Assembly: GCA_964016885.1 (NCBI GenBank)
Contig: OZ024753.1
Coordinates: 16,740,001-16,804,000, forward strand
Direction of reading: 5' to 3'
Origin: Eledone cirrhosa
Taxonomy: Eukaryota
DNA: 64,000 nt
The notes beneath the pieces were generated by a model that ran no database searches, had not been told where the DNA came from, and saw only the letters and a list, made by a program, of their open reading frames with translations. The first letter of the stretch is position 1, and each line of letters starts with the position of its first letter. Below are positions 175 to 58,186 of this stretch, piece by piece. A program made the position numbers and the translations under genes.

Positions 175-667
175 ATATTGTTATGCTTTGGGAGGGTCAT
201 GTTGCCAATAAGAAACACACGCACCAGTTGCTTTCACTCCAATTTATTATAAATTAAATTTATAAATTTAAGAATTTATAAATTTCCGGTTGGTTGGTTG
301 GTTCCACAACCAGACGGTTGTTCATATATTGTCAAAGTTCTTTCGTCACACATTCTGTGACCTCTTCAGTGACTGGGGATTCTTTTCTTTGTTTTTGTGC
401 CTCTCCTTTGTTCTGTCCTATGCCATCTTGTAACAAGATGGCATAAGACAGAACAAAGGAGAGGCACAAAACAAAGAAAAGAATCCCCAGTCACTGAAGA
501 GGTCACAGAATGTGTGACGAAAGAACTTTGACAATGTATGAACAACCGTCCGGTTATGGAACCAACCAACCGGAAATTTATAAATTTAATTTATAATATA
601 TTGGAGTGAAAGCATCTGGTGCGTGTGTTTCTTATTTGTAACATGACCCTCCCAAAGCATAACAATA
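175..667. repeat. Foldback palindrome (arms ~240-255 bp, 1-nt loop at 432)
   Basis: tgccatcttgt-a-acaagatggca centre; arms pair out to atattgttatgctttgggaggg / ccctcccaaagcataacaatat. Confidence 0.9.
490..532 (+). ncRNA. Minimal hammerhead-like motif (mirror copy at 331-373, minus strand)
   Basis: GTCA-CTGAAGA-G-GTCACA.GAATG.TGTGAC-GAAAGAACTT-TGAC. Confidence 0.55.
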
Positions 668-837
668 TATATATATATATATATATATATAGAGAGAGAG
701 AGAGAGAGACTAGCTTTAATGTCATTTCACCATGTGCTTCTCAGGATATGGTAGCATTGGACTTAGCTGTAGATATTGGATGGTATATTGATTTATTTAC
801 CATCTTCATTCTATATTTCTCTTAGAATGGTGAGACT

Positions 838-993
838 AAACCGCTGAAGAGTACCTTCGTCTCATGTGGTTTAATTATAATCAAAAGTTTGTCTTCGATG
901 ATCGATTATATTGATTGATTTTTTTCCGATGATTAATTATGTAGATTGATTTTGAGCTACACTCTCCAGGTTTGAAATAGCGCTATAAGGTTT
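838..993 (+). ncRNA. Hammerhead-like motif with long stem II insertion
   Basis: AAACCg-CTGAAGA-GTACCT..~110 nt..AGGTTT-GAA-ATAGCGCTAT (palindrome)-A-aGGTTT; imperfect stems. Confidence 0.45.
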
Positions 994-1494
994 CTCTTAT
1001 TATTCCACCTGTGTACATATTCTTCTATAGAATATGTAGAATATGTATTTGGTATATATACAGTATACTGTGTCTCTTGTACAATATGTTTCTCTCTCTA
1101 TATATATACATATCTCTTCTTCATTTGCTTATATATATATAAGAATGGGTTCTACAGGACTAGACCTGGTTCATTCAAAAGAAATCGTCAGGAAAGCTAT
1201 TAATGTATTGAGTACCTTATTAACTGTGGTTAGTCCCTATTGAACCCAGCTTCAATATATATATATATATAAACAAATGTGAGCTAGACAGCGTTGTTTA
1301 AATCATGATAGAAGATAGTTTTAACTAAACAGATGGACTAAGAGAGAGTATTAAACATACAGACATAGCAACAGATTGATATGTTGGTATTCTTATGTTT
1401 AAAATTAATGTATTTATGAAAATATAACAATAATAGTTTCTTTGCACAGATGATATAATGTTGTAATGGATACAGTTAAGTAGGACACATTATA

Positions 1495-1790
1495 TAATAA
1501 TAATAATGAAATTATTGTGTAAAGTGCTCAGGTGCACTACAACTCGTCAAAGGTGTATGTATAGTACATAGAATAATACACAAATGTCAGGGAAGTACAT
1601 GTGTGTATGTGTTGGCGGATCTCGGGAAGCATGGAGGCCTTAAAGGATGCAGTGTCTCGACAGCTAACAATTGATGCAGGTAGTTTGTTCCATGCTTCAG
1701 CAACTCTGAGCGTGAAAGAATGTTTCCGAAAGTCATGGGAACTGTGCTGTTTTCTTACTTTGTGGGCATGTCTACGTGTGTTAGACACAT
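1495..1790 (-). mobile_element. CR1-type LINE 3' end
   Basis: TRRH..KV...RKHSFTLRVAEAWNKLP..V...FK is the typical CR1 ORF2 C-terminus; (ATT)n tail. Confidence 0.75.
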
Positions 1791-1804
1791 ATAATGAGAA
1801 ACAA

Positions 1805-1990
1805 GGTGGATTGGCAGTATCGGTAGAGGGTCGGACGCCATGCTTTGACGCAAAGAGTTACGGCTCTTTATGGTCTGAGTCCAAATCCCGCCGAGGTCAA
1901 CTTTGCCTTTCATCCTTACGGGGTCGATAAAATAAAATACCAGTAATACACTGGGTAATTGCTGGCCTTGTGCCAAAATTAGAAACAATT
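1805..1990 (+). mobile_element. SINE family B
   Basis: Identity to 31053-31246; another partial copy at ~20122-20260. Confidence 0.8.
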
Positions 1991-55537: not shown

Positions 55538-55890
55538 TAATTGTTTCTATTTTTGGCACAAGGCCAGCAATTACCCAGTGCATTACTGGTACTTTATTTT
55601 ATCAACCCCGTAAGGATGAAAGGCAAAGTTAACCTCGGCGGAAATTGAGTTAATAATAATAATATAATAATATTATAATATTATTATTATTGAGTTTAAG
55701 GGTGGTGGATTGGCAGTATCGGTAGAGGGTCGGATGCCATGGTTTTCAGCATAGTTACGTCCCTTTATGGTCTGAGTTCAAATCCCATCAAGGTTAACTT
55801 TGCCTTTCATCCTTACAGGGTCGATAAAATAAAATACCAGTAATGCACTGGGTAATTGCTGGCCTTGTGCCAAAAGTAGAAACAATTATT
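55538..55890. mobile_element. Head-to-head pair of SINE family B copies
   Basis: 55538-55645 (-) and 55700-55890 (+). Confidence 0.8.
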
Positions 55891-56336
55891 ATTCAGTTTA
55901 GCAAGTAAACAGCCTCATAAAATACCGCTTCGTAGAGGAACAACATCATCCTTTTGTTCCAGTAGTAGCTGAGAGAAAACAATCGACAATTGTTTCGGAG
56001 TTATTGCTCTCTATCGAGATTGTGTATTCTGTCATCTCTGCTACCTTCTAGAACAGCTGAGGATACATAATATTCTAAAAGATATACATCGGCTGACTAG
56101 CCTCATTTGCATACTCAGCGATTTTACGGCCAAATTGTTGAAAAATAATAAAATAAAAAATTAGTTTTCGCTCTTAACCTAAATACCTAAATTTATTTGT
56201 GTGTGAATATTATAATAATATCATCTCAATAAGGAGCAATAACTCCAAAACAATTGTCGATTGTTTTTTTCTCAGCTACTACTGGAACAATGGGTTGATG
56301 ATTAGTTGAAGCTGTTTACTTGTAAACAAACCGAAT
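55891..56336. mobile_element. MITE-like element with ~120-bp imperfect inverted arms
   Basis: ttgttccagtagtagctgaga..aacaatcgacaattgttt.ggagttattgctc pairs with its reverse complement at ~56232-56290. Confidence 0.72.
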
Positions 56337-56583
56337 ATTAATAATATGATATTATTGTAAAATATTAATAATATGATATTATTGTAATTTTATTATTATT
56401 AACTCACAAATACATCCTTACATACATATATACATACATGTATATATATATATATACTTCGTTTTTGTATTTCTTATGCAAGATTTCTTATCTGAAAATG
56501 TTTGTTGAAACAGATATTGTTATACCTTGGTAGAGTCATGCTGCCAATAAAAACACACACATACTTGATGGTTTTCATTTCAA

Positions 56584-57813
56584 TCTATATATATAAAACT
56601 GAGGTTGTCTGTCTGTCTATCGATTTTTGGCACACATCTCCTCTTAGAATCTCTCACGGAATTGCACCGAAATTGCTATACTTGTACATTGAGCCCTAGC
56701 GAAGACATCGGAAAAAAATATTTCAAATTGACCCGCCCTATCTGACGAAATCGAATATAATGTATCGATTTTTGAGCGTAAGTGATGAGTTATTTCCCTT
56801 TGTTCTGTTTACATTCAGCGTAGCGTCTTACGTTCTCTTTACATTTTCTGCGTGCAAAAATTAAAAAAATGATTTCCCTTTGTTCTGTTTACATTCAGCG
56901 TAGCGTCTTACGTTCTGTTTACATTTTCTGCGTGCAAAAATTAAAAAAATTACGCTGGCAAAAATTAAAAAAATTACGCTGGCTTTCTCAGCGTTTAAAA
57001 TGACATTAACACAATACACGAACAGTTGTCGAGCCAGCAAAATTTTGACCTGCAAAATTCATCAGTTCGAACACTAAGCTTCCGTTTTGCTTCATTTCCA
57101 TTTAAAAGCCTTTTAAAACAATATTTTTACTTGAAAACAAGTCTATTTAAAGACTACGTAAAACAAGCAAATATTTCGTAAAAAAAAGCAAAAATTATAT
57201 AAGTTTATTTAAAATATATGTATCTGTAAATTTTGTTAGGCGTGCAGACAGACAGTCGTGCAGACAGACAGTCGTGCAGAGAGGTGATTTAGGCGTGCAG
57301 ACAGACAGTCGTGCAGAGAGGTGATATAGGCGTGCAGACAGACAGTCGTGCAGACAGACAGTCGTGCAGAGAGGTGATATAGGCGTGCAGACAGACAGTC
57401 GTGCAGAGAGTTGATATAGGCGTGCAGACAGACAGTCGTGCAGAGAGGTGATATAGGCGTGCAGACAGACAGTCGTGAAGAGAGGTGATATAGGCGTGCA
57501 GACAGACATAACTGATAATTTGGTTACGCTAATGTTTTTCTCTGCGTTGCAGTGTTTACATTTTCGATCTTTGTTAATAAATAACCAGTGCAGTTTTTAT
57601 CCCCAGCATCCTCTTTTGTTATAACATTCGGGTTATCGTTATGTTTTCTTAACTTCATAAGGCATATTGTTGGTTGAGGGAATATTAATCAAAAACACCA
57701 CATGCAAGTCTGCACAGTAGACACTACAGTTTTTAAGCCAAAAAAGAAACTTAACATTGTAACTTTAACACAGCTACTGAGCGACCCCGAGCAACGCCGG
57801 GCTTTACTGCTAG
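56584..57813 (+). mobile_element. Non-autonomous Helitron
   Basis: Starts TCTATATATATAAAA and ends with hairpin CCCGAGCAACGCCGGG followed by CTAG. Inserted between A and T with no TSD; the rejoined flanks match the empty site of the same repeat at ~235-255. Confidence 0.85.
57238..57508. repeat. Minisatellite inside the Helitron (cgtgcagacagacagt / cgtgcagagaggtgatatagg units)
   Basis: Direct reading. Confidence 0.9.
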
Positions 57814-58094
57814 TTTATTATAAATTTCGGGTTGGTTGGTTTAATAACCAGATGGTTTTTATATTTATTGTCAAAACTCTTTCATCACACATTCTGTGAC
57901 CTCCTCACTGTCTAATTTATTTTGCATATCTCCTTTGTTCTGTCTTACATCATCTTGTTTTTGTGAGCTGTGTATACAACAATATATATATATATATATA
58001 TATATATAGAGAGAGAGAGAGAGAGAGAGAGAGAGAGAGAGAGAGAGAGAGAGATATGTACATATGTATATATATATATATCTTTTGTCACATC

Positions 58095-58186
58095 ACCAGT
58101 CTGAGGAGCAGATCGATACTGGAGTCGCGTCCATAACTCCTATGGGTCACCTTGAACCAATCCTCTGTGAAACACAGGTAACAGGT
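58095..58186 (+). ncRNA. Hammerhead with branched stem II
   Basis: ACCAGT-CTGAGGA-GCAGA..(GGAGT/ACTCC hairpin)..TCTGT-GAAAC.ACAG.GTA-ACAGGT, then AATAAA at 58195-58200. Confidence 0.55.

Follow-up and report, generated by a model that had tools for sequence, protein, structure and literature searches.

The closest described counterparts of the sequences analysed here are the hammerhead ribozymes found in the pseudo-long terminal repeats (pseudo-LTRs) that Penelope-like elements (PLEs) carry, ribozymes described as type I motifs with a palindromic stem III, an extra base after A9 and a U3-A8 core variant, present mostly as solo truncated copies and as inverted pairs 100-700 bp apart, with many families per genome (PMC4209133). 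The same properties were found for a set of motifs in a 64-kb stretch (the window) of the 3.0-Gb genome of Eledone cirrhosa (contig OZ024753.1, positions 16,740,001 to 16,804,000), around the first coding exon of the castor/CASZ1 gene; positions below are those of the window, unless a locus number (L) is given. The published description gives about 2,000-9,000 hammerheads per genome, whereas at least 95,887 were counted here by exact pattern, the methods being different, and several families here differ in having long stem II inserts or a monomer-type stem III. A literature search, with most subscription papers outside its reach, returned no report of hammerheads in octopus or cephalopods, and 31 recently active Penelope-like families are listed in an octopus repeat annotation of 2026, the main text of which does not mention ribozymes (PMC13282606).

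The motifs are best explained, with a probability of roughly 85%, as the 3' ends of repeat families, at least 12 in number and several of them tied to PLEs, and thus as ordinary insertion debris favoured by (AT)n, with no castor-specific role. Each family is a dispersed repeat whose ends abut microsatellites, and the copies, truncated at the 5' end, often form a pair with an inverted one; they would have accumulated in the window because these elements favour (AT)n runs. An initial annotation of this DNA had read the motifs as terminal remnants of several distinct PLE or retrozyme lineages. This reading of their origin is right, yet it describes the genome, not the castor locus; the kind of element was already known, and it is the scale that is unusual.

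Type I hammerhead motifs in the window

When the window was searched with a strict type I descriptor (stem I - CUGANGA - stem II - GAAA - stem III - UH - stem I'), 14 matches were obtained, whereas 100 local dinucleotide shuffles averaged 0.08 matches and never gave more than 2, a 175-fold excess. All 14 sites of the initial annotation were hammerhead-derived, 13 with complete cores and one broken; ten were among the strict matches and the other four were hammerhead-derived too. At site 838 stem II exceeds the descriptor length (core at 844, predicted cut after 987), sites 11115 and 13778 have UUGAGAA, the U3-A8 variant of the core, and site 31384 has G12 changed to A, a broken core that fails the type I core-box test. 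Four complete motifs had been missed, at 17842(-), 31911(-), 50219(+) and 50999(-). The number of about 14 copies in about eight families given previously was revised to 17 complete cores (two of them U3-A8) in 15 insertions and 12 families, by our own grouping, in addition to about ten broken or half copies. The features are as follows.

175-668, no strand assigned: family A inverted insertion that contains two hammerheads (cores at 369-335 on the minus strand and 494-528 on the plus strand)
844-993, plus strand: family B type I hammerhead, its stem II long and its stem III palindromic; stem I opens with a mismatched pair; the cut is predicted to follow 987
7934-7961, minus strand: family C minimal (dimer-type) hammerhead, intact
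11017-13886, plus strand: family D, a Hydra-type PLE, 5'-truncated and flanked by (AT)n runs, made up of an inverted terminal repeat (about 11017-11550), an open reading frame (ORF) remnant, a 3' region and a direct terminal repeat
11553-12644, plus strand: family D ORF remnant of 363 aa, with reverse transcriptase (RT) thumb, CxCx5C linker and GIY-YIG endonuclease
11120-11203, minus strand: family D hammerhead, inverted copy, U3-A8 core variant
13783-13866, plus strand: family D hammerhead, U3-A8 core, GUC site; the element ends about 20 nt past the predicted cut, at (AT)n
17842-17896, minus strand: family E hammerhead with palindromic stem III, in the group with 74,311 exact-pattern copies
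17993-18563, minus strand: family F, a 0.91-unit copy of a young non-coding retrozyme whose unit is 629 bp; its hammerhead, at 18331-18262, is of the monomer type and has an 8-bp stem III
31389-31416, plus strand: family C copy with a broken core (G12 to A)
31669-31714, minus strand: family G hammerhead, intact; the minimum-energy fold is the hammerhead fold
31911-31939, minus strand: family H minimal hammerhead; one change breaks the palindrome
32705-32754, plus strand: family G hammerhead with defective stem I, upstream of the castor start codon
33286-33384, minus strand: family I hammerhead with long stem II; one change breaks the palindrome
45383-45410, plus strand: family C minimal hammerhead with weakened stem II, in a castor intron, sense
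50219-50257, plus strand: family J hammerhead fitting the family pattern, in a castor intron, sense; 21,576 exact-pattern copies
50999-51029, minus strand: family K hammerhead with palindromic stem III
52255-52300, minus strand: family G hammerhead, intact; the minimum-energy fold is the hammerhead fold
53171-53364, no strand assigned: two 3' halves of the family D hammerhead, forming an inverted pair
58101-58180, plus strand: family L hammerhead, stem I mismatched and palindrome broken, followed by AATAAA; castor intron, sense

Further decayed hammerheads with broken cores were seen at 1153-1191(-), 27790-27844(-), 55955-56289 and 57845-57936(-). At 23029-23159 lies an inverted pair of a family that elsewhere (L216) has a U3-A8 core, both window copies being C3-A8, a mismatched core. 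Site 838 was also considered as a non-circularly permuted hammerhead (PMC10085705), a candidate that was rejected once its distant GAAA box was found.

A non-circular test was made by selecting on core boxes and stem I only, in 99 background stretches and in 30 shuffled rounds of the same stretches, which gave 42 and 28 matches, respectively. An exact palindromic stem III, never selected for, was present in 18/42 background matches and in 0/28 shuffled ones, and a stem II of at least 4 bp in 11/42 and 1/28. Covariation was assayed in nine G-related copies, in an alignment limited to stem II, stem I being misaligned in three rows and left out; six of the nine stem II pairs change on both sides, and 97% of the cells are paired. 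Therefore, by their number over shuffled controls, their independently formed stems and palindromes and their covariation, the motifs of the window are genuine type I hammerhead motifs, the cleavage itself being predicted.

The surroundings of the motifs, which had been described as (AT)n in most cases and AATAAA in some, were also compared with controls. A dinucleotide run was present within 300 nt downstream of 85% of 100 motifs, compared to 44% of random positions, so the association with microsatellites is borne out. The AATAAA signal is weak, as it followed the motif at only 3 of 18 sites, one of the three overlapping stem I.

Families linked to Penelope-like elements and a non-coding retrozyme

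The ORF remnant of family D in the window is 96% identical to a 784-aa open frame of tandem copies elsewhere, a single ORF with an RT followed by a C-terminal GIY-YIG domain, in which YRDD and VIY...YIG are present. Pfam gave no match for this ORF, and a protein search returned 2,216 relatives, mostly unnamed. The protein contains RWR (for RWK), DKT, CxCx5C, CxxC and CxH, with CCHH absent by eye, and Hydra-clade motifs are also present in 113-117 of 120 homologues. In one array, five family D hammerheads lie exactly 3,531 bp apart, and the four units differ by 0-1 base. The hammerhead was found in tandem or inverted pseudo-LTRs at a (TA)n target, as in PLEs. Its 5' half has 2,444 copies in the genome. 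When the ends of the element were mapped (37 ends in 30 loci), 22 stopped at an AT run about 20 nt past the cut and 14 read through; the 3' ends are two, 20 and 103 nt after the cut.

By its motifs, family D is probably a young autonomous 3.5-kb PLE of the Hydra type. With the Hydra clade of PLEs that have a C-terminal endonuclease (EN), as described in PMC8557442, it has in common RW(K/R), DKT, the CxCx5C linker, the lack of CCHH, the CxxC and CxH around the E and N, the hammerhead and the (TA)n insertion. That clade is described as found mainly in cnidarians, with few families outside them, and as shorter than 3 kb, whereas the family D unit is young and has 3.5 kb, and about 3% of the sampled DNA here consists of related coding remnants: Hydra-type coding remnants were present in 21 of the 99 background stretches, the 3% referring to the 60 random ones.

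Four inverted stubs of family D (6753-6949, 9221-9351, 32376-32622 and 53171-53364) break inside loop II, so that only the GAAA half is left; these near-identical breakpoints suggest a preferred stop or a template-switch site.

The longest copies of families A and C (one long copy each, L243 and L005) run 5' into a GIY-YIG endonuclease with a Cys linker and a CCHH pattern, which by motif pattern would be of the Neptune or Nematis PLE type. For family G, the PLE order is seen at L266, where a Hydra-type ORF remnant is preceded by an inverted copy and followed by a direct one, three other loci being partial or unclear, and in two loci family E is found about 1 kb downstream of Hydra-type remnants. 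On these sequence arrangements, families D, A and C are tied to PLE ORFs with good support, and G and E weakly. Two other arrays were noted: at L054 (456-3396), a second retrozyme-like one, in which a unit of about 482 bp with one family K hammerhead is present seven times in tandem, and at L168 (4148-7848), a hammerhead, a Hydra-type ORF and a hammerhead in a 3,643-bp unit, from a family related to G.

Family F has no ORF of note: its 629-bp unit, 34% GC and arranged head-to-tail in tandem, has a longest frame of 83 codons and no DNA similarity to the family D unit. Two or three hammerheads were found in 9 of 21 loci, with two overlapping pairs among them; 30 of 40 scored matches were 100% identical over 360-361 nt, and the 3' half of the ribozyme has 810 copies in the genome. 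The 3' end was at unit position 269 in 18 of 19 insertions (at 267 in the other), an internal AT-rich stretch abutting (AT)n, whereas the 5' ends were scattered, with lengths of 0.91-3.04 units. Such ends, and lengths above one unit, are as a circular or multimeric RNA template would give, and the predicted circular fold had a z of -3.1 relative to 40 shuffles.

Family F is thus a candidate very young non-coding retrozyme with a predicted circular RNA. It resembles the non-LTR retrozymes (PMC7229834; bioRxiv 10.64898/2026.07.22.740005) in being non-coding, in its 34% GC, in its head-to-tail arrangement and in the single type I hammerhead per unit. Its 629 bp exceed the usual 150-450 bp and fall within the 51-972 range given in bioRxiv 10.64898/2026.07.22.740005, and it differs in the PLE-style (AT)n targeting and the fixed internal 3' end. 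As the (AT)n target is common to both, our guess is that a Hydra-type protein mobilises family F. With family D in PLE terminal repeats, A and C continuing into GIY-YIG, G flanking an ORF and F in non-coding tandems, the proposed origin from several PLE and retrozyme lineages is supported.

Abundance across the genome

The strict descriptor found 32 matches in 599.6 kb of background DNA (60 random, length-weighted 10-kb stretches), or 3.4 per 64 kb, and 44 in 389.4 kb (39 grid stretches), or 7.2 per 64 kb with one 7-copy array included; the flanks of the window had 16 in 200 kb, or 5.1 per 64 kb. Counted with both cores, the grid sample reached 9 per 64 kb, which overstates the mean and includes the 7-copy array, and the length-weighted sample under-samples two groups counted genome-wide (11 seen, 19 expected); the background is thus given as a range, 3-7 per 64 kb. 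Across the 99 stretches, the number of motifs followed that of (AT)n tracts (rho 0.53).

When exact patterns that cover both core boxes were counted over the whole genome, these two groups had 74,311 and 21,576 copies (95,887 in total), and the reversed patterns 0. As the two groups account for 23 of 76 background matches, the calibrated genome total is about 317,000 (229,000-474,000), and direct extrapolation gave 155,000 (85,000-235,000); the U3-A8 background matches, partly due to chance, were excluded from the estimate. The genome would therefore probably contain 150,000-320,000 hammerhead motifs. Published counts, obtained with other descriptors, are over 6,000 in a coral, about 5,000 in a mussel and up to 120,000 in the axolotl (PMC7229834), and about 9,000 in Xenopus and about 4,000 in the coelacanth (PMC4209133). 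The families of the window carpet the genome, two groups alone making up the 95,887 copies, so that a density peculiar to the castor locus is not supported, and the locus is only mildly special in this respect.

Mode of copying, alternatives and the castor gene

The ribozyme would cut tandem transcripts to unit-length RNAs, probably then circularised; the GIY-YIG enzyme would nick (AT)n, and target-primed reverse transcription would start from a fixed internal site past the cut (20 or 103 nt in D, 269 nt in F) and run back through the ribozyme. An anole PLE is described to use target-primed reverse transcription in vitro, with two start sites that define a 'tail' (PMC11167929). Because copying would run back through the ribozyme, even the shortest aborted copies would keep all or half of a hammerhead, which would explain the abundance of the motifs. 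Most solo copies are predicted to be inert, either because they have decayed or because their palindromic stem III requires a partner. As copies cross the cut site and exceed one unit, the template would be a re-ligated circle or an uncut multimer, and the circle is favoured for D, F and G by fold predictions: in the best copies of D (a subfamily in L192), F and G, the monomer-competent hammerhead fold is within 0-1.9 kcal/mol of the minimum, the window copy of D being 4.3 off.

Several points weigh against the reading of the motifs as ordinary debris of PLE-like elements. The window, which had been called unusually dense, is still enriched 2-4 times over the genome background (p about 0.01-0.04), a modest excess over 3-7 per 64 kb that tracks (AT)n. 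The p values were 0.018 by bootstrap for its 14 matches relative to the 99 stretches, 0.036 relative to small chromosomes, 0.043 per (AT)n tract and 0.01 by Poisson on the calibrated mean, in tests that take 10-kb blocks as independent and for a window itself chosen for density; it would rank in the top 1-4% of about 47,000 such windows, that is, with several hundred to two thousand of them. In the covariation assay, 0 of 500 shuffles were as high, but the nine rows are related sequences, so this count is no probability. Similarly, the share of family F insertions longer than one unit (18 of 19) is inflated, as the query favoured copies of at least 571 nt. Families B, F, H, I, J, K and L had no ORF link in the short flanks examined, and both cleavage and RNA circles are deduced from sequence. 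Finally, the anole PLE used uncut RNA in vitro and its ribozyme mutants still inserted (PMC11167929), which makes the circular step dispensable there.

The alternative that survives best is that the same elements are copied from linear uncut tandem transcripts, with no RNA circle and with a hammerhead that is mostly silent or has some other use. That every copy spans the cut site is equally well explained by an uncut RNA; in the anole work, unprocessed RNA is described as the dominant substrate, with no RNA-seq reads ending at the cut in the account given (PMC11167929). Moreover, weak cleavage is reported for minimal PLE hammerheads (PMC4209133), and one of nine dimers cleaved in bioRxiv 10.64898/2026.07.22.740005. 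However, D (the L192 subfamily), F and G are monomer-competent by fold, so that long uncut multimers would be expected to be short-lived, and cores are intact across diverged families while stems covary. Copying from uncut transcripts is therefore considered unlikely, although it is the most serious competitor of the circular template.

The second alternative concerns the castor gene, whose presence on the plus strand, as initially annotated, was verified through its first coding exon and a zinc-finger exon.

33659-35198, plus strand: castor/CASZ1 first coding exon, with DAICAKL start and LKDYAESTMN motif; a GT donor served to deduce its 3' end

The open frame at 33644-35233, which corresponds to this exon, begins with MEYSSAAYSRIDAICAKL, resembling the DAICAKL starts of mollusc castors, and has the LKDYAESTMN motif in common with them (best E 6e-6). 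A downstream zinc-finger exon is 87-97% identical to mollusc castor proteins, the top hits of the homology search, and the zinc-finger exons lie on the plus strand 27-58 kb past the window end. A homology search with the low-complexity first exon gave no match, and Pfam did not recognise the castor exons. Three sequencing runs containing a castor exon had an even, low depth and no splice joints, as expected of DNA, and were therefore uninformative on castor expression.

It had been proposed that plus-strand copies such as 32699, 45379 and 58095 could cleave the castor pre-mRNA co-transcriptionally, and some sense copies might tune castor output in this way, as a by-product or after co-option. 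Five sense copies do lie inside the castor coding span, one of which (50219) fits its family pattern and has a 4-bp stem III; the window is mildly enriched in hammerheads; and conserved intronic hammerheads are known in amniotes (PMC6155905). The latter, in RECK and other genes, are likewise type I and on the sense strand of introns, but they are described as conserved single copies, whereas those found here belong to high-copy repeat families with no strand bias. The tally by the strict descriptor within the castor coding span is five sense to five antisense, all from families of thousands, and the density is no higher inside (7.2 per 64 kb) than upstream (8.6).

The fold predictions were also compared. 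In the sense copies the hammerhead fold was 4.7 (45383), 6.6 (50219), 9.3 (58101) and 7.8 (L081) kcal/mol above the minimum-energy fold, and 5.5 kcal/mol at 32705, upstream of the castor start codon; in antisense copies the gap went from 0 (52255, 31669) to 5.1 (50999) kcal/mol. Sense copies thus scored below antisense ones (one-sided p 0.058, n = 5+5, families pooled), which hints that selection acted against cutting and not in its favour, that is, that active sense copies were lost. In addition, copies 45379 and 58095 are predicted to need a dimer partner to cleave, and 32699 is found some 0.9 kb upstream of the castor start codon. Regulation of castor by hammerheads is therefore unsupported, and cutting of its pre-mRNA by some sense copies is very improbable.

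The last alternative, chance matches in AT-rich, hairpin-rich DNA, could appeal to the lack of any hammerhead family among the Rfam matches listed for the window (150 of 436) or in two focused scans, to the chance-level frequency of the U3-A8 match at 31979 and of some in the background, and to one background cluster of matches inside the reading frame of a long interspersed nuclear element (LINE), but it is refuted by the 175-fold excess, the unselected palindromes and stems, the covariation and the position in PLE terminal repeats. The window-wide Rfam matches were dominated by (AT)n microRNA models, the stem lengths of the window motifs differ from the 45-position Rfam hammerhead model, and elsewhere in the genome 18 of 74 scored places do pass the RF00163 cut-off.

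Other repeats were also present in the window. An uninterrupted 912-aa RT frame at 59301-62039 (-), antisense in a castor intron (Pfam RVT_1, E 8.5e-23) and with a C-terminal restriction-like endonuclease motif, resembles what we take to be a young R4/Dong-type LINE. LINE RT fragments, RTE-type and others, were found at 28807-30971 (-), 9346-10185, 6887-7462 and 35613-36104, one of which contains a CTGATGA that mimics a hammerhead core. Minisatellites lie at 23857-26729 (10 bp x 289), 38409-42589 (58 bp x 72) and 45792-47727 (93 bp x 21), the 93-bp unit looking like part of a LINE-like minus-strand frame that has been repeated.

As a castor-specific system, the motifs are of little importance. 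A wider reading, which we put forward tentatively since the odds are somewhat against it as a whole, is that the genome contains a few hundred thousand hammerheads, about one per 10-20 kb and above any printed count found, with several in nearly every long pre-mRNA. They would be driven by an active radiation of Hydra-clade PLEs, which would move a circular RNA of 629 nt as well, through rolling-circle reverse transcription that is primed internally and directed into (AT)n, while selection would remove active sense copies from genes. The at least 96,000, and probably 150,000-320,000, motifs form a large natural library of hammerhead variants, and their scale allows a well-powered test of the strand-wise purging of intronic ribozymes. 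Likewise, the very young pair formed by the 3.5-kb PLE and the 629-bp retrozyme, with its sharp insertion footprint, makes both the role of the hammerhead in PLEs and the mobiliser of animal retrozymes testable.

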